Source: Trichodelitschia bisporula
Lineage: Eukaryota
Length of the DNA stretch: 64,000 nt
Assembly: GCA_010356995.1 (NCBI GenBank)
Contig: ML996690.1
Coordinates: 1,086,217 to 1,150,216 of the forward strand
Direction: 5' to 3'
Made by a program: the position numbers and the translations under genes
In this document: positions 54,335-64,000 of the stretch, one piece after another
Position numbering within the stretch: the first letter of the stretch is position 1
How the letters are laid out: each line of letters opens with the position of its first letter
The notes under the pieces: model-generated
Databases searched by the model: none
What the model saw: only the letters and a program-made list of their open reading frames with translations
What the model was told of the DNA's origin: nothing

Positions 54335-55875
54335 TCACAGCAGACCTTGCTTTTGTAAGTCGAGATACACCTTCTCCGGCATAACATTTCCTTCCGCATC
54401 CTCCATCTGCACAATGTTGTCATGAACCGTCCTCTCCTTCTTCCGATCCCTCGAAATCTTGTCCCACAGCTTAAGAGCTTCTTCGATTCCAGTAATCTCT
54501 CGGAAGAGCGTCGTGTTCGTGATGCCCAGACACTTCAATCCGTAGACATGCCGAGCTTCACCAAAATGCTTGTCGAATGCTCGCCGGCCCATGTAAACGA
54601 AGTTGCCGCAGATTTCGCAGGGAAACTCGACGCCGAGGCCGTGCAGCTTGTACAACCAGTACGGAATTGGCTTGCCGTCCCAGGCGAGGGGAAGCTTCAA
54701 GGGGTTGTATATCTTGTCATCCCCGTCCGACTCTTCGTCCTCTTCCTGGCGCCCTGCCGGCTCGGCTGATTGCTCATAGAAAGCGGCAAGCTCCTGTTGG
54801 CGTTCCCTGTCCGTCATGCCCTGCTTCCGCTCAACGTTGACCCTCGTGTCGCTCCGCTCCGTCTGCATAGCAGCAACGAGCTTCTTGATCCGGGACTCTC
54901 GTTCAGCCAATGCCTTCTCCTTCAAGCCAAGCGCAGTCGCTGCGGATTGTCGTGGGGCCCCATTCGTAGCAGTCCCATTCTTCTTCGCTTCCGCGGCCTT
55001 GATGTGCTTCCGGTTGGTGAGGTGATGCTTGTAGACGTTCTCATTCTTGAACTCCTTCTCGCAATCATCGCACCATATGCCTTCGCCAGATCCTTTGGTG
55101 GCAGGCGCAGCCACTTTGGGCTTTTCCTCCTTTTGCCACTCCGCGATCTCTCCAGCTTCCCAAGCCTTCTCAAAGTCGGCGTTGAAGGTGGCGAACAGTT
55201 TATCCAAATCCTCCAAAGGCTTTGTCCGTCGCATGAATCCTTCAAGATATGATGCCAGCGCACCAAGATATCTGAAGTACGTGTCGTTCATCTTGTCGGC
55301 GCGCTTGATGGTGGTGAAGTTGTCGAAGGAGTCGAGGTATTGAAGGTAAGTGAAGCGGCGACCGCCTTTCACCCCTGGCAAGTTAAGGAACTCTTCATGC
55401 AGCGTGGTAAGGTCAAAGAACCTTCCGTAGCCCTCCTCTCCAGTAAACATGGTATCGATCGGCATGGCGACCACTTCGCCTTCCGCGGCAGGTCGACGCT
55501 TGTATGCGCGCTCCAAGTTCTCGACGGGTTCGTTGGGGTACCGTCGATGGAAGTCTTTCATCTCGGAGAGCTGTTTGTAGAACTCTGATGTTGGGTCACC
55601 GGTGGAGACGGACTGTATCTCTCTTGTCCGCTCACCATCGCTATCGCGGTAGATATCGAGAAGCCGCTGAGACTGATCATGGATACGAATGAGGAAGTTT
55701 GCGACTTCATGATCGCGGTTCAGCCGTTCCCTAATCTATACGACATGTAAGCCCCGATTCAAAGGAAGTGGATAGATTTGCGTACGTGTTTTGGATCTTC
55801 TATCACTCGGTCGGCGATGGCAGCTTCCAGCCTCTCCAGGTCCTCGTGCAGGACGCGCTGCTCCTCCAATATCAT
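54335..55875 (-). CDS. PRP9: Splicing factor 3A subunit 3 (SF3a60). Intron 55785-55736
   Basis: LEEQRVLHEDLERLE, FTGEEGYGRFFDL, YNPLKLPLAWDGKPIPYWLYKLHGLG..FPCEICGN, DLQKQGLL. Confidence 0.96.
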
Positions 55876-56204
55876 CGCTGCTGGGTAATCGTCCTCGACT
55901 GACCGCTGTGTAGAAAGATAGGAGGAAAGGGGAGGTTTATTGCACGTGGTTGCAATCACGCTGGTCCGTTGCACGTCGCGAAGCTCAAGTCGAGGCGCGA
56001 AACCACCCTAGGTCACCGGAACAACCTTTTGCCACAAAATCAAAGAGAGGGTGGCCCGTGCACTTTCTATGCTCCAGCCTTTTGGCCTGCACGGCGAACT
56101 TCGGCCAGCGCAAGCCACTCCACCACTACGAACTCACAAACTCACCCCATCATCTCCACCGCATCACTCTATCACCTAACGAAAACTTCTTGACTTTCGA
56201 CATC

Positions 56205-57452
56205 ATGGCGGAGGGAATTGACAGGAAGGCCGAGGAGCGCATGGAGTTCAACACCTCCAAGGAGGTGACCGTCGCGCCGACTTTCGAGGCGATGCATCTC
56301 AAGGAGAATCTCCTTCGCGGCATCTACGCGTACGGCTACGAATCACCTTCGGCTGTACAGTCTCGCGCTATCGTCCAAATCTGCAAAGGCCGCGACACCA
56401 TCGCTCAGGCGCAGTCTGGTACGGGTAAAACGGCGACTTTCTCGATTAGCATCCTCCAGATCATCGACACCGCGGTTAGGGAGACGCAAGCGCTTGTCCT
56501 TTCGCCGACCCGTGAACTTGCCACTCAGATCCAGTCTGTCATCATGGCGCTCGGCGACTATATGAACGTTCAGTGCCACGCCTGCATTGGCGGTACGAAT
56601 GTCGGAGAGGATATCCGGAAGCTTGATTACGGACAGCACGTCGTCTCCGGAACTCCTGGACGCGTGGCTGATATGATCCGTCGCCGCAACCTCCGCACGC
56701 GCCACATCAAGATGCTGGTTCTGGATGAAGCGGACGAACTGCTCAACCGTGGCTTCCGGGAGCAGATCTACGATGTTTACCGGTACCTGCCGCCTGCGAC
56801 GCAAGTTGTTGTCGTCTCGGCCACTCTTCCCTACGACGTTCTGGACATGACCACGAAATTCATGACGGATCCGGTCCGCATTTTGGTCAAGCGTGACGAG
56901 TTGACTCTGGAAGGTCTCAAGCAGTACTTCATTGCGATTGAACGGGAGGAGTGGAAGTTTGACACACTATGCGATCTCTACGACACCCTCACCATTACCC
57001 AGGCTGTCATCTTTTGCAACACTCGGCGCAAGGTGGACTGGCTGACGGACAAGATGCGCGAGGCCAATTTCACCGTCTCCTCGATGCACGGCGATATGCC
57101 GCAGAAGGAACGTGACAGTATCATGTCCGACTTCCGGCAGGGCAACTCTCGCGTGCTGATCTCGACCGACGTCTGGGCTCGTGGTATCGACGTGCAGCAG
57201 GTTTCTCTTGTGATCAATTACGATCTTCCCAGCAACCGTGAGAACTATATTCATCGTATCGGTCGTAGCGGTCGGTTCGGACGCAAGGGTGTTGCCATCA
57301 ACTTCGTCACCGCTGAGGACGTTCGCATTCTCCGCGACATTGAGTGTAAGTCTGCTAGTCCGCCGCTACGATGACAGGGCTGACGAAAGATAGTGTACTA
57401 CTCTACTCAGATCGACGAGATGCCGATGAATGTGGCCGATCTTATCTCTTAG
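56205..57452 (+). CDS. FAL1: DEAD-box RNA helicase eIF4A-III (exon junction complex). Intron 57346-57393
   Basis: [37 protein letters not shown] (the W is typical of eIF4AIII), [20 protein letters not shown]. Confidence 0.96.
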
Positions 57453-58112: not shown

Positions 58113-59243
58113 TTACAGTATTCCGGCTGCCAAATCCATTTTGAGTCTCCATCTCTTTCGCCATTCCTTGGTTCTTGACGTCGGCTTCACGGCCTCGAGG
58201 CCCGCATCATCTCGTGCCACCTGTGGCAAGCATTCTTCCTGTACGTGCTCCGGCAAGCACTGTTCCTGATCCGTAGGCACAACTTCGGGGGCATTGATTC
58301 CCGTCGGTGAATGTTCGCCCTGATCCTCAGCCGCGCCCACAGCAGCATCGCCGCGCGTCGGTGGGCGTTCCACCTGATTCTCCGTCGCGCCCACAGGGGC
58401 GTCCACGCCCGCGGGTGCATACGGAGTCGGAATGATGAAATTAGGCACTGAAGCGGGCAGTTCTGCGAAGTTTTCGAGTCCCCAGTCGGCTGGTAGCTGT
58501 TCTCTGGAAAGGTTGTAATCCGTCGGCAACTCGAAGCAATCCGATCTGGTGGCATCTGTCGTTCCGGTGTGGTTGGCGGTGATCGGGCATGGGATTTCGT
58601 GGGCCTGGGCTTCAATTGAATCCTTTGGGTAGACCGGGCCCGGTACGTCCCGCATGAAAGTCGAGTACGCTGGTATCAACGTTAGCATGTCCTTTGCTCT
58701 GAACTCGATGCATGTACTTGATCTCTGAGTGTCGACCGAACGCCGACGTGCCCGCCGCTTACTCTGCCTCTTCTTATACGGACTCAGATAGTCCTCATAC
58801 ACACTCCCCTCATCATCCAGTACCACATCCCTCGCTATCATCGCAAGGCTACTAATACCCTGCAACAAACTCTTATGACAAGTATCCAGCTCGAACTGGC
58901 GCGTCACAAGCTTCGTCTGGTTGCGCAACATGTACTCGAGCCGGTGCCGCGGCTCCGCCGGTACGCTCTTCTCCGTAGTAAGCAGGAAAGTCCCGATACT
59001 AGCCAGTGCCTCGTTGACGCTGTATATCATGCCCTCGATGTACTGCTCGTGCGCGGTGTCAGTTTGGAAGTGCGCCTGCACGCCCGGCTTGTCCCTCAGG
59101 CGGAGCGCTTCGTTCAGATCTGCTTCCACGCGGTTTATGAGCCGGCAGAAGACTTGCGTTTCGATGCCTAGGTCGCGCGCGTGGGCGGCTGCGTCGACCA
59201 TTTTGTAGACCGTGTTTATGGCTGTTGCTGTTGTGCCGTTCAT
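58113..59243 (-). CDS. Hypothetical protein: N-terminal helical bundle (about 135 aa) plus acidic disordered tail. Probable intron 58717-58670
   Basis: 376-codon ORF with amphipathic helices …RLINRVEADLNEALRL…HRLEYMLRNQTKLVTRQFELDTCHKSLLQGISSL. GTACAT…GCTAAC…CAG intron in frame. Confidence 0.72.
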   Translation of the reverse strand: MNGTTATAINTVYKMVDAAAHARDLGIETQVFCRLINRVEADLNEALRLRDKPGVQAHFQTDTAHEQYIEGMIYSVNEALASIGTFLLTTEKSVPAEPRHRLEYMLRNQTKLVTRQFELDTCHKSLLQGISSLAMIARDVVLDDEGSVYEDYLSPYKKRQSKRRARRRSVDTQRSSTCIEFRAKDMLTLIPAYSTFMRDVPGPVYPKDSIEAQAHEIPCPITANHTGTTDATRSDCFELPTDYNLSREQLPADWGLENFAELPASVPNFIIPTPYAPAGVDAPVGATENQVERPPTRGDAAVGAAEDQGEHSPTGINAPEVVPTDQEQCLPEHVQEECLPQVARDDAGLEAVKPTSRTKEWRKRWRLKMDLAAGIL

Positions 59244-60072
59244 CGTGTCGTGGATGTGGGATGCGGGGACGGGGGCATGGTTTGCGGTGGTGATGGAGGA
59301 GTAGGAGGAGTTGGAGGAGTAAACGCTGACCCCTCACGGAATGAGGAAACCAAGGACATGGCACTGATGAATGGCACGACCCATGACCCGCCGGCCCGCA
59401 GAGGCGCGCTGGACTGGGGAACGGATAAGACACTGCCTGGGGGGCGGGGTGAGGCCTGTGTCACAGCCTTCACCACACTCCTCTCCGCACGAGGATATTG
59501 GTTGGACGCAGGAGCCAAGGCTCCGGAGTTAATACTGAATATCTTTGCCTTTCTTAGAGTAGGTAGTGAATCCTTCGCGGGAAGCGGGGACCCTGATACG
59601 CTGGATGGCAAAGGCTCTTGTTTCAACTTCATCCCCGTTGTGTGGGGGCTCACGGCGCAAGGCAAGGGCGAGCCGAGATGCAAAGTATGCTACTTCATAT
59701 AATCGCATTCTGGAGCTTGCATGGCTCGTGTGGGGGCATAGGTCCTCGGAAATAATTCACTCATCCGCTTTTCACTTCAAACTGGCAAGCACTATGCTCG
59801 CGAGGACGATCGGCGTTGGCCATCAAAGGACTTCTGATTGGTCAGGAAATGCTCAGCCTCGTTGTGAGGCGATGCTCGTGTGCTTCGGACGCTAACACCA
59901 ACGCCTATAATTGCAAGCCCATACCGTACCGCACGGTCATCAAATATGCTTCCCGCCGCTAGTCTTGCATTAGGTTCCAGAATACTGGTCGAAAAGCTAG
60001 GCGGGAAATCCCATAAAGAACCGATTGATCATAAGCCACCACGTCCATCAACCGTGAACAATGGTCTCAACC

Positions 60073-61426
60073 TCATCCCGTATACTTCACCACATCTCTA
60101 TCGGCAAATACCACTGGATGCGAGAGCGGCACACCATTATCATCAGTCAACTTCGACAGCCCGGGGAACGCAACAAAATCATCCCCCGCACCCTGTCCCT
60201 TCCAATCGAGCGAGAAGAGACCCGGCTGGGAGAAGAGCAAGAAGCCAAACCTCGCCCCGCGCTTAATTATCTCAGTCAAATTGGTGACGCGCTCTGGATC
60301 CGCCGGATCCCGCGCATACGCCTTCAGAACCAGATCGGCAACGGATACCGCGCGCTGAATGTTTTCGTCGCGCGGATCGTGCTCGGAGATGTGGTCAAAA
60401 GCTGTTCCGGAGAGTAGTGCCGTGAGCTGCCGCCAACGGCTGTAGAAGGTATATTGCGCTACATCATCGTCAGTATTGTGCAGAGAAGCGGGGAGATTTC
60501 GACATACAGCTGTTGTTGGCCTTTACCGGAACAAGTGCTTTACTGAGGCTCGCAAGCGCAGGCGGCAGGAGCGTCTTATCAACCTCCGAACCAAGCTGCG
60601 CCCTAGACAAAATAGTCCACGCCAGGAAAAAGCGCAACGCAGGCACACGAAACTTCGGCTCTCCAAGCCAGCCCGCCAACGTCTCCGCCGGAATCGGTGT
60701 ATTCGGTCCAAGCGCTGCAGCAAGTTTCCGAGCTGAAATATCGCCTACGCCGGTGTCGGGGCGGTAGTAGCTCTGGACGTGGCTATCGATCTTAGTCCGT
60801 AGCTTCGAGAGATCGCTGATGATGGCGCGGTCCTCTGCTGGCTGCGGCAGGCTGTAGTCCGTGACCATGGCGCCCTTTTCCACCGCGATGTAGTCCGAAG
60901 AGTGGTTGCCGTGGGCGGCGCCTCCGAGGGCCGGGCCCTCGCGCCATTTCTTTCCGCGCCGGCTTTTGGCGAAGAGCAGGAAGAGGAGCGCAGCTAGGGC
61001 GATGCCGGCGATGAAGCAGCCGATGGCGATTCCGGCTGCTGGGCCTGAGGAGAGGTGCTTTTGTGCCGGCACGAGCGAGGTGGAAGTGTTATTGTTAGCG
61101 TTGTTTGCAGGCGGATTGCCCGCGGGAGGGTGTGATTGAGTGTCTGGCGACGAAAAGTTGCCGCCGGGAGTGGAACTTGTATTCAGGGCATTTGTCGACG
61201 AATTTCCAGACTCTAGAGGTATGGTTTCTGGATTTGTACCCGTAGTAGGGTTTGCCACTGAAGTTGAAGTCGCAGAGCTTCCTGATCCCTGTTGGCCAGC
61301 AGATGTGGAAGTAGTTGTGGAAGTAGTTGTTGGAGTAGTTGTGGGAGTAGTTGTAGAAGTAGTTGTGGGAGTAGTTGCTTGTCCCGGTTGATTCACAGCT
61401 CCTGCTTGAAGATTCTGAGCCACCAT
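60073..61426 (-). CDS. Single-pass membrane protein: Thr/Ser-rich N-terminal region, TM helix, about 250-aa cytosolic domain. Intron 60507-60459
   Basis: TM AAGIAIGCFIAGIALAALLFLLF followed by KSRRGKK. Splicing GTATGT…CTGAC…TAG joins the 318-aa ORF in frame to …SRWRQLTA…LTEIIKRGARFGFLLFSQP…VAFPGLSKLTDDNG…. Confidence 0.85.
61306..61378. repeat. 12-bp coding tandem repeat (TTPT/TTST), about 6 copies
   Basis: Iterations of g(g/a)agtagttgtn on the + strand. Confidence 0.8.
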
Positions 61427-62344
61427 ATTGTATTCCGCAAAGTCAGAAGTAAAAAGTCCCCAAAAACCCGGGGTGAAGACGAAAGAAAAAGGGTTCCAAC
61501 ATCAGGCTGGGGGGGGCCGTGAAACACCCACAACTTAACACTCGAGCCCGTGGGGAGCCGCTTTGTTAGCCCGTTGCTTTTTACCACAGCCTGACTGACT
61601 TCCGTGCCCCCGCACTCACGGTTCACCACAGGCTCCTTCCCCAAGAATGAACGGCCTCAAGCCATGCGCCCACTGGACAAATGTGGTGGCACGGGCAAGG
61701 CTTTGCATGGGGCGGCTTTGGTGACCTGCCCTAATTGGCTTACACGCGAGGCACTGCCCGATGATCCTAGACAAGGCTGAGCGGGGGGGCGCTCACGTCG
61801 GAGTCCGGGCTTATACACGAACATTGATAATTCCCCATGCAGTGCTGGATTTTTCAGCTGGATGCTCAAGCAAGTCCAGATGCGATGCTGAGGTCGGGGT
61901 AGTAAGGCTGCACTCAGAGAACACGTTGACCATTATGTGGGTGAAGATATGGATGCGCGATCGGCCGTGGAGGATTGGCTGAATACGAGCTTGGCCATGC
62001 AAAGCAGGGATGAGGCTGAAGCGTCGCAGGTATTGCAGGAGCGCTGGGCAAAGACCACACAAAGATAGCTCCAGCCATCCTGTTGATTGGGCGCGTCGCG
62101 TGTGTCGATCGGTAATGACACCCTGATGGCTTCCATTACTCCGCATTTCTCTTGTTGAGCTTCAAACTCACCTTTGTACATCCGTACTGTGGACCTCGCC
62201 GCCAGCCTTCTGCCTACCCCCTCGTCCAAACTATCAGCTCACATGGTGGTCGTGGGCGGCGATTAAGTTGAATCATTCTGCGGGCCTTGGAGCAGCTCTT
62301 TACAGCTTGGCACCGACCACAGGCCTTTGCGACAGTAAGCCAGC

Positions 62345-64000
62345 ATGAACGAAAAGCCAAAGGAAGCCGTGAAGGCAGACCTCATCGTCGCCATTGACTA
62401 TGGCATGACCTGTCCGTCCCCCAACCCCAATCCCAAACCCTCGCTGAACGCCTGCAGGCACAGGAGTCGCCTACGTCAACCGCACCCGAAGCGACAACAT
62501 CCGGCACCTCCAACGCTGGCCCGGCCGCGCCCAAGCCAACGAGAACAAAGTCCCAACAGTCCTAGTATACAACAAAACCGCCGACCAAATGATAAACTGG
62601 GGCTTCACCTCCGAAGCCAAGCACTCAGAGCAAAACAACCCCAACGAGCTGTACTGCGACTGGTTCAAGACCTTCCTCGACCCGGCCGTATTGCGCGCCG
62701 CGCAAGCCCGCGACCCGGCGAACATACCCTCACAGGCGGATGTCGATCGCTGGACGCAGGACTACCTCCAGGCCCTCTACCAGCATGTCAAGTTCAAGCT
62801 CAGCGCCGAGATGCCGGCGCATAAGCCGTGGTCGAGCGCGAAGGTCGAGTTCATTTTCAGCGTGCCGACGACGTGGTCGCCCCACCCGACGGTCGAGAAG
62901 TTCCGCACCATTGCGACGCGGGCTGGGTTTGGCGAGTCACCGCTACATGCGGTGAAAGTGAGCTTGACGGAGGCGGAAGCCGCGGCTGTGTATACGTCCG
63001 TTGAGGCGCCTGGGCTTTTTTCTGCGGACGAAGTCGTACTTGTGTGCGATGCTGGCGGGGGCACGACGGATTTGACAATCATGCGGATTCAGAGCGTCGT
63101 AAATCAGCTGCTGTCGTTGAAGCAGCTGGATGTCGTGACGGGAAAGAATATCGGATCCGTCCGTATCGATGAGGCGTTTGAGGATCTCGTCCTTGCCCGC
63201 CTAGAAGCAGCCAATGAAGCCCAGAGCATAGGGCTGGACCTAGATATGGCGGCCTGGCAGATGATGAAGTCAGCGCAGTACCAGGACGCCAAATGCGACT
63301 TTGGCTCGCCAGACGATACAAACTTCTTCGTGCCCATCCAAGGCATCTCCACGGAACACACGAGCCCCCAATTCGGGATCCAGAACGGAAACATGTGCAT
63401 CTCGCTTTACGATCTGCAGACCTTATTCGACAAGCAAATCGAGCGACTCGTCACCCTCATCGACCAGCAGCTAGAAAACTTCCAGAAAAAATACTCGGCC
63501 GACAAAATCGCCCACCTCGTGCTTTCGGGCGGCCTAGGGAACTCGCCGTACGTCCAGAGCCTGCTTAAGGCGCGGTATGCCTTTGGGGCGAGTAAGTTTA
63601 CATGCGCGCAGAACGTCCAGGTCCACGTGGCGCCGGAACCGCAGCTTGCCGTGTGCAAAGGCCTGATTTCGCATCGGATGCGGGAGGTCATTGGAGATCC
63701 GGTTATCAAGCAGCTTTGCTGCCGCGCCTCGTACGGCACAGTCTGCAGGATTCTTTATGACAAGAGGAATCCGACCCATCAAGGTCTGAAGACTTGGAGA
63801 GATCCTCTGAACGGCAAAGAATATGTTGCGCAGGCTATAGCTTGGTTTATTAGGAAGGTATGCTTCCAGTTCGTTGACGTCCGTTGAGTATGGAGCTCAG
63901 AGTGAACAGGGACAACCGGTGGATGTGAAGAAGCCCATCGTACATTTATTCAACCGCAAACTGACACCGGGCGATCCGCGGCGAGCATTCCCGACGAGTG
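62345..64000 (+). CDS. Atypical Hsp70-family ATPase (HSPA12-like, fungal type), truncated by the window end. Introns 62412-62457 and 63858-63909
   Basis: After splicing: IVAIDYGMTCTGVAY (phosphate 1), RWPG…NKVPT, WFKTFLD, FSVPTTW, TEAEAAA, VCDAGGGTTDL (phosphate 2), LSGGLGNSPY, AVCKGL. Confidence 0.92.

Follow-up and report, generated by a model that had tools for sequence, protein, structure and literature searches.

We analysed a window of 64,000 nucleotides of genomic DNA from the dothideomycete Trichodelitschia bisporula (GenBank assembly GCA_010356995.1, contig ML996690.1, positions 1,086,217 to 1,150,216 of the forward strand). All positions given below refer to this window. The part from 58.1 to 64.0 kb comprises three genes: a gene for a single-pass transmembrane (TM) protein, P0001, a divergently oriented gene for an Hsp70-like ATPase, P0155, and a third gene for a small helical protein. 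Since the TM gene and the Hsp70-like gene occur head-to-head in many ascomycetes, usually together with the third gene, their two products probably work together. No second copy of either the TM gene or the Hsp70-like gene was found within the window. For the coordinates of all features see Table 1.

Table 1. Positions of the genes and of the protein segments that they encode at the T. bisporula locus.
Feature	Positions	Strand	Description
TM gene	60073..61426	-	434-residue single-pass membrane protein P0001; model from splice sites and reading frame
TM gene, exon 1	61426..60508	-	starts at ATG 61426
TM gene, intron	60507..60459	-	49 base pairs, GTATGT...TAG
TM gene, exon 2	60458..60073	-	stop codon included
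P0001 residues 1-127	61046..61426	-	Ser/Thr-rich stalk, without signal peptide
P0001 residues 128-155	60962..61045	-	single TM helix with small-residue motifs, consensus GAxAGIAIGC
P0001 residues ~190-434	60076..60859	-	predicted cytosolic alpha/beta domain, spans the intron; LPQPxED motif, then seven helices, then five-strand C-terminal sheet
P0001 residues 308-434	60076..60456	-	C-terminal three-helix plus beta-sheet module; corresponds to exon 2
Divergent spacer	61427..62344		918 base pairs between the two ATG codons; one copy of the 8-mer CTCAGCCT
Hsp70-like gene	62345..64000	+	HSPA12-like / DUF8340 actin-fold ATPase P0155; runs off the window end
Hsp70-like gene, exon 1	62345..62411	+	starts at ATG 62345
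Hsp70-like gene, introns	62412..62457 and 63858..63909	+	from gene model
Hsp70-like gene, exons 2 and 3	62458..63857; 63910..window end	+	from gene model
Third gene	58113..59243	-	same strand as the TM gene, downstream of it; start at 59243 and single exon assumed

The spliced product of the TM gene is identical (100%) to the database protein P0001 (434 residues). Its N-terminal segment, residues 1-127, consists to 40% of serine and threonine, contains five N-X-S/T sequons and does not begin with a hydrophobic stretch. AlphaFold2 modelled this stalk with low confidence (predicted local distance difference test, pLDDT, below 60). The following TM helix has a hydropathy of 2.81, spans residues 130-156 in the AlphaFold2 model and is directly followed by the basic sequence RRGKKWR. 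Two of its glycines, G132 and G141, are almost invariant in the family alignment. A poorly modelled linker of about 30 residues connects the helix to the folded domain. According to the positive-inside rule, the stalk would lie outside and the folded domain in the cytosol; the stalk is probably extracytosolic and glycosylated.

A word-based homolog search with P0001 found only the protein itself, and the same search with an alignment of 78 family members returned mostly low-complexity words and few useful matches. An exhaustive HMMER search retrieved 787 representative homologs at E<=1e-3, 372 of them at E<=1e-10; judged by these sequence relatives, P0001 is not an orphan. Most of the first 60 homologs listed share its layout: the N-terminus is rich in Ser/Thr and varies in length, and a single TM helix and the conserved cytosolic domain follow. 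The exceptions are mainly short entries. In homologs with a detected helix, serine and threonine make up 20-50% of the sequence ahead of it. The conserved motifs of the family are LPQPxED, IKNHVQSYYH, SKWRxITA, RxxNLEEIxxRAAxFAFLLFSQP and LVVFPALxQxxDExG. Many entries originate from metagenome or raw-run assemblies (JGI/IMG, Logan), and many of the shorter hits (P0074-P0150, P0079) begin or end at the intron position, near residue 306. These short hits appear to be single exons that were called as genes on fungal contigs by intron-blind programs. In several loci the tblastn match spans the intron position in one piece, so that the intron may be lacking there.

P0001 matched no Pfam family at E<=10. 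We also scanned the 78 aligned family members at E<=1 and ranked the 78 families that were hit by the number of members matched; the best 25 of them were generic mucin or TM segments, for example Podoplanin (21/78) and TM_ErbB1 (12/78). Twelve TM-less members gave nothing relevant in Pfam at E<=10. Mucin-like single-pass surface sensors and anchors are familiar from fungi, for example the cell-wall sensors Mid2 and Wsc1, and Opy2. P0001 resembles them in its Ser/Thr-rich and sequon-rich stalk, its one TM helix and its cytosolic tail. It differs from Mid2 and the WSC proteins, however, in that it has no match to Mid2 (PF04478) or WSC in the Pfam search, no signal peptide, and a folded domain of about 245 residues in place of a short tail. 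Two of its homologs carry the automatic database names 'Mid2 domain-containing protein' and 'cell wall integrity and stress response component'.

The cytosolic domain was predicted with a pLDDT above 90 over most of residues 190-434 (AlphaFold2). The strings RVTNLTEIIKRGARFGFLLFSQP, FSLDW and FVAFPGLSKLTDDNGVPLSHPVV, singled out when the locus was read from its sequence alone, are present in P0001 and fall into helix 361-382 and strands 388-430. Folded on its own, the C-terminal module of 127 residues reached a pLDDT of 91.5, and the 134-residue protein P0079 matches this module only. The domain has no Pfam family and no significant match to a solved structure in searches with Pfam, with Foldseek and with VIA-align against the PDB. 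Foldseek returned nothing at E<=1e-3 from the PDB, either for the whole model or for the C-terminal module alone. The best VIA-align matches in the PDB, with Z-scores of 5.4 and 5.2, include a type I-D Cascade subunit, Med15 and sigma factors and are at noise level; with the module alone the listed matches cover helices only. In the ESM Atlas the nearest structural neighbours of the P0001 model are ascomycete hypothetical proteins with TM-scores of 0.77-0.85.

The 519 residues of the Hsp70-like gene that are encoded within the window are identical to the start of P0155, a protein of 619 residues. P0155 matches the Hsp70 family (PF00012) with 31 bits at a cut-off of 20.6, and only profile positions 177-348 of 599 are covered, which correspond to the second half of the nucleotide-binding domain. 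A search of the PDB matched the nucleotide-binding domains of the solved structures of mortalin and DnaK (E ~1e-5). The phosphate-1, phosphate-2 and adenosine motifs are all kept (D18/G20/T22, D220-GGGTTD227 and G380-G383), and DxGxT, DxGGGTxD and GGxG are invariant or nearly so in an alignment of 58 relatives of P0155. No match to the canonical Hsp70 substrate-binding domain was found, and the PDB matches end inside the nucleotide-binding domain. The precomputed database annotation assigns PF27033 to P0155, which is DUF8340 according to the ESM Atlas; the language-model feature score of P0155 against the chordate 'HSPA12A.1' cluster in the same Atlas is 0.96. On account of this annotation and this score it is reasonable to call the protein HSPA12-type, a label that is based on the feature score and not on a tree.

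The animal proteins HSPA12A and HSPA12B and the fungal DUF8340 proteins, named 'actin-like ATPase domain-containing proteins', are similar to P0155 in their Hsp70-type nucleotide-binding domain with its motifs and in having no match to a canonical substrate-binding domain. An HSPA12-type ATPase without the canonical peptide-binding domain was also what the sequence-only reading had recognised here. Its gene models, the divergent spacing, the Thr/Ser stalk, the single TM helix and the helix-then-strands C-terminus of P0001 likewise agree with sequence and model. No partner or function has been described for the HSPA12 class, whereas P0155 has a conserved genomic partner. According to a 2026 review (PMC13580251), it is at present not known what HspA12 does.

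We fetched 45 metagenome loci with the TM family alone as bait (an alignment of 15 sequences), including up to 10 kb on each side, and these loci, 409 kb in total, were then searched with the Hsp70-like protein by tblastn. At E<=1e-5, 26 loci have an Hsp70-like gene as the immediate upstream neighbour of the TM gene, encoded on the other strand. L009 is one further positive locus, with a 30-residue Hsp70-like fragment at the contig edge (E 4e-4). Where at least 2.7 kb of upstream sequence is present, 21 of 23 loci carry the head-to-head Hsp70-like gene, the negatives being L021 and L025. In the remaining 22 loci the upstream sequence is shorter than 1.8 kb: in six of these the beginning of an Hsp70-like gene is still visible where the contig ends (in one case only at E 4e-4), and 16 give no information. 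The 409 kb contain 63 Hsp70-like high-scoring segment pairs, every one of them head-to-head with a TM gene. The pairing of the two genes is far beyond chance. Because the Hsp70-like genes of these loci are 37-55% identical to P0155, the head-to-head arrangement spans a deep divergence.

As a control against passive synteny, we selected the 14 loci in which at least 1.5 kb of sequence lies on the outer side of the Hsp70-like gene and compared these outer flanks (1.7-6.8 kb) by tblastx. They are similar in 6 of 91 locus pairs and have nothing in common in the remaining 85. Five of the six pairs with a shared flank have an Hsp70 identity of at least 0.88; the sixth is L014/L017.

For named genomes, 30 TM homologs were looked up against the 120 best Hsp70-like hits, and 12 species were common to both sets. 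Here 12 of 14 TM proteins, the one from the window included, have a contig equal in length to that of an Hsp70-like protein and are apparently encoded on the same contig. Consecutive locus tags were found for the pair in Coniosporium apollinis (W97_02172/W97_02173) and in Verruconis gallopava (PV09_07066/PV09_07067), and in Patellaria atrata the two proteins are numbered 978673 and 978671. Two separate pairs, each on a contig of its own, occur in Lophium mytilinum, as judged from same-contig evidence. The dedicated pair that had been proposed from the sequence alone is thereby borne out at the level of gene order: TM homologs preferentially adjoin HSPA12-like genes, and wherever the pair is present in the informative metagenome loci, it is head-to-head. 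A partial coverage of the literature, judged mostly at title and abstract level, yielded no published description of this pairing.

The third gene was described in the sequence-only reading as a helical-bundle orphan next to the pair, a view that has to be revised. Its open reading frame lies on the minus strand (58116-59333), and translation probably starts at the ATG at 59243. The protein consists of an N-terminal helical domain of about 130 residues with a TCHxSL motif, followed by a disordered tail with a basic cluster. Of the 26 loci that extend at least 1.7 kb downstream, 17 gave a tblastn match to the gene, always on the strand of the TM gene and 700-1600 base pairs (bp) downstream of it (L001, L004, L005, L006, L009, L012, L014-L018, L024, L031, L033-L035 and L037). 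These matches comprise the N-terminal ~130-150 residues, with E-values from 2e-16 to 7e-6 and identities of 23-32%. The nine negative loci may be real losses or may have been missed at low identity. Since the third gene is conserved beside the TM gene, the unit is probably a three-gene cluster.

An alignment of the third-protein domain shows an invariant D, R and G and an invariant CH pair inside the TCHxSL motif. Many loci also have an N-terminal MLPTAGLFLPETLHR-like motif and, after the domain, a motif similar to PIYEAP...LRGPYSR. The third protein has no relative in Pfam or in the PDB. A kinship with the cytosolic domain of P0001 was considered and rejected (hhalign probability 0.38%). At 54338-57371 the window contains two well-conserved genes (best matches 62% and 90% identity), which are syntenic in 5 of the 45 loci: L001, L005, L016, L031 and L043. 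These five loci are the closer relatives of the window, since they share this synteny.

The 918-bp spacer between the two ATG codons is presumably a bidirectional promoter. In the 26 loci, 900-1600 bp separate the two tblastn matches at their 5' ends. The 8-mer CTCAGCCT, often lengthened to CTCAGCCTYGYGGCACAGC, was found on the TM-sense strand of the spacer in 9 of 18 non-redundant loci as well as in the window. Spacers contain 0.61 copies per kb, compared to 0.05 per kb and strand in other sequence; the 8-mer was selected post hoc by ranking k-mers, and the loci are in part related to one another. We regard CTCAGCCT as a candidate cis element and as a lead only. We also searched for known promoter motifs, namely the heat-shock element (HSE), the stress-response element (STRE), the Rlm1 site, the Swi4/6 cell-cycle box (SCB), the MluI cell-cycle box (MCB), the calcineurin-dependent response element (CDRE) and the unfolded-protein response element (UPRE), and none of them is both present in the window spacer and consistent across the loci. 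The HSE does not occur in the window spacer, and the STRE and CCAAT are too frequent to be meaningful.

The best explanation of these data is that the cluster is kept together by selection in filamentous ascomycetes, the T. bisporula locus being one copy of it. Based on gene order and the modelling results, we think it rather likely that the three genes form a functional module, in which the cytosolic domain of the TM protein is either a docking site and regulatory partner of the ATPase or its dedicated client, and in which the ATPase cycle controls the receptor tail and possibly the third protein. The following mechanism can be envisaged. The HSPA12-like (DUF8340) ATPase and the mucin-like TM protein would be expressed divergently from their common spacer of about 1 kb, and the membrane protein would be inserted with its N-terminus out and its C-terminus in. 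The cytosolic domain of P0001 would then serve the cytosolic ATPase as membrane docking site and regulatory partner, or be its dedicated client. The nucleotide cycle of the ATPase would in turn determine which conformation or state of assembly the receptor tail adopts, and possibly the third protein as well. All this might happen in response to events on the outside of the cell. The data show the gene models, the protein architecture, a confidently predicted fold, intact ATPase motifs and an adjacency that is conserved, oriented and co-inherited amid unrelated neighbours; the topology, the co-regulation, the physical binding and a signalling role are the elements of this module that we infer.

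In general, membrane proteins that engage an Hsp70 through a non-membrane domain are well known, both in the sensor-chaperone pair Ire1-BiP and in the membrane-anchored Hsp70 partners Sec63 and Tim44. The concept proposed here is similar to these cases in that the non-membrane domain of a membrane protein would engage an Hsp70-family ATPase. P0001 differs from all three, as it has no homology to them, has no J domain and would act in another compartment.

Several observations weigh against the proposed module or limit its support. Many of the metagenome loci come from related fungi (Dothideomycetes and lichen fungi), and the locus counts are therefore not counts of independent events. L021 and L025 contain a family member (L021:8573-9400 and L025:3800-4186) and no Hsp70-like neighbour. 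Only the C-terminal half of these members matches well, with the three-helix plus sheet module as the one clear match, and in L021 a helicase gene lies upstream. These two members may be decayed copies or may represent a subfamily without an ATPase partner. The same-contig matches in named genomes do not show adjacency, and the TM paralogs of Eremomyces bilateralis (P0021) and Amniculicola lignicola (P0035) have no same-contig Hsp70-like protein among the best 120 Hsp70-like hits. The distance matrices of the two proteins are closely correlated (Mantel r = 0.92, reached in 0 of 5000 permutations; 22 non-redundant pairs from loci with long matches, 3 of 25 having been dropped as near-identical), a correlation that speaks for co-inheritance of the pair but is expected from shared descent alone and does not indicate co-evolution beyond descent. 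Finally, the topology of P0001 and its missing signal peptide rest on gene models, and an unannotated upstream exon is possible.

The main rival to the module is co-regulation without binding. In this case the two genes would be expressed from the bidirectional promoter in one pathway or under one condition, and the linkage would be kept for expression, although the proteins never touch. The head-to-head orientation with its constant spacer (5' ends of matches within the range given above in all 26 loci) and the recurrence of CTCAGCCT in that spacer agree with such an arrangement, and the binding of the proteins is deduced, not observed. We take this alternative seriously, albeit as an unlikely one. 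The pair is still arranged in this way where the Hsp70 identity has dropped to 37% and the neighbourhood has changed, the third gene is retained as well, and L. mytilinum has two TM/Hsp70-like pairs. Persistence, third gene and Lophium pairs are more typical of proteins that need each other, even if they are also compatible with co-regulation alone.

Further ideas on the functional module concern the nature of the cytosolic domain. In comparisons of predicted models in the ESM Atlas, a basidiomycete cluster of 631 residues, 73% of whose members have an MMR_HSR1 GTPase domain, was found near the P0001 model, with a TM-score of 0.63 over 232 aligned residues comprising the whole cytosolic domain. 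Because this GTPase-bearing cluster aligns structurally with the whole domain, a P0001-type domain may also occur fused to a GTPase. A plant DUF641/GIL1_IRKI_C cluster aligned with residues 193-434 of P0001 (184 aligned residues, TM-score 0.54 by query and 0.34 by hit, both sides being predicted models). Neither DUF641 (PF04859) nor GIL1_IRKI_C (PF24994) was matched by profile in P0001 or in the 12 TM-less members at E<=10, or among the best 25 of 78 families for the 78 members. Both kinships are weak leads, in which one predicted model is compared with another.

According to a 2026 paper (PMC13189119), the DUF641 protein COST1 is a binding partner of the dynamin-like GTPase RHD3 and increases GTP hydrolysis by RHD3 by about 20%; in a model, the C-terminal part of COST1 lies beside the GTPase domain. 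The same paper terms DUF641 plant-specific and asks about non-plant counterparts of this nucleoside triphosphatase (NTPase) cofactor (PMC13189119). COST1 is comparable to P0001 in that COST1 is the partner of an NTPase and the P0001 domain lies near the DUF641/GIL1_IRKI_C cluster in predicted models; they differ in that COST1 has no TM helix and has a GTPase as partner, whereas P0001 has a TM helix and is paired with a gene for an Hsp70-like ATPase. A speculative and rather doubtful extension would make the cytosolic domain a new, widespread NTPase-partner domain, which in fungi would correspond by structure to the C-terminal domain of the plant DUF641/GIL1-IRKI proteins. In ascomycetes it would be tethered to a mucin-like surface protein and regulate a dedicated HSPA12-like ATPase in trans; in basidiomycetes it would act in cis, as a fusion with a GTPase. 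Joined by the third, helical protein, this might constitute a three-part surface-to-cytosol pathway for stress or non-self signalling.

The sequence-only reading had gone in a different direction and interpreted the domain as a possible nucleotide-exchange factor of the GrpE or MIEAP type that forms part of a membrane sensor and would accelerate the release of ADP from its cognate Hsp70-like ATPase. In this respect GrpE/Mge1, the partner of DnaK-type Hsp70s, is indeed comparable to P0001: in both, helices are followed by a small beta sheet, as at the C-terminus of GrpE, and both are paired with an Hsp70-family ATPase, in the case of P0001 by gene order. A conserved partner of an Hsp70-type ATPase is also what one would expect a co-chaperone to look like. 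In the VIA-align search with the whole model, two GrpE structures reach through the beta part: 9bls_B (rank 27, Z 4.1, root-mean-square deviation 4.5, 91 aligned residues) and 4ani_A (rank 46, Z 3.8, root-mean-square deviation 3.6, 90 aligned residues). These values, however, are at noise level, since the same list is headed by a Z-score of only 5.4 and values below 8 are commonplace for VIA-align. When the module was searched alone, GrpE was not among the 50 matches listed (Z at least 4.0), and the Foldseek searches described above were empty at their threshold for either model.

The profile searches gave the same picture. Neither GrpE nor MIEAP (PF16026) was found in Pfam with P0001 or with the 12 TM-less members at E<=10, or among the best 25 of 78 families for the 78 members. 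The Foldseek and VIA-align searches of the PDB likewise listed no MIEAP entry. A search of the PDB with the family profile did not return GrpE at E<=10, and hhalign of the family against E. coli GrpE gave a probability of 0.28%, a weak test in view of its single-sequence template. GrpE is moreover a soluble protein, whereas the P0001 domain is membrane-anchored. What the module shares with GrpE thus does not go beyond an order of helices and then a small sheet, and a built-in exchange factor appears quite improbable.

Passive synteny by descent without any functional link is most unlikely: many loci do come from related Dothideomycetes and lichen fungi and the distance matrices correlate as shared descent predicts, but on the far side of the Hsp70-like gene 85 of 91 locus pairs have unrelated flanks, the other neighbours in the window recur in 5 of 45 loci compared to 21 of 23 informative loci for the pair, and the orientation of the pair is invariant.

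HSPA12-type Hsp70s are widespread and are expanded in several lineages. A partner gene that is kept beside the ATPase gene over a deep fungal divergence and in shuffled neighbourhoods provides a testable hypothesis on the target of one branch of this class. In addition, two protein families without a Pfam model or a solved relative have been defined, one for the cytosolic alpha/beta domain of about 245 residues and one for the helical domain that the third gene encodes. The weak link to DUF641, if true, would answer the call for non-plant counterparts of the NTPase cofactor in the COST1 paper (PMC13189119). If the cytosolic domain were in fact a new NTPase-partner domain, it would offer a first mechanistic handle on the HSPA12 class.

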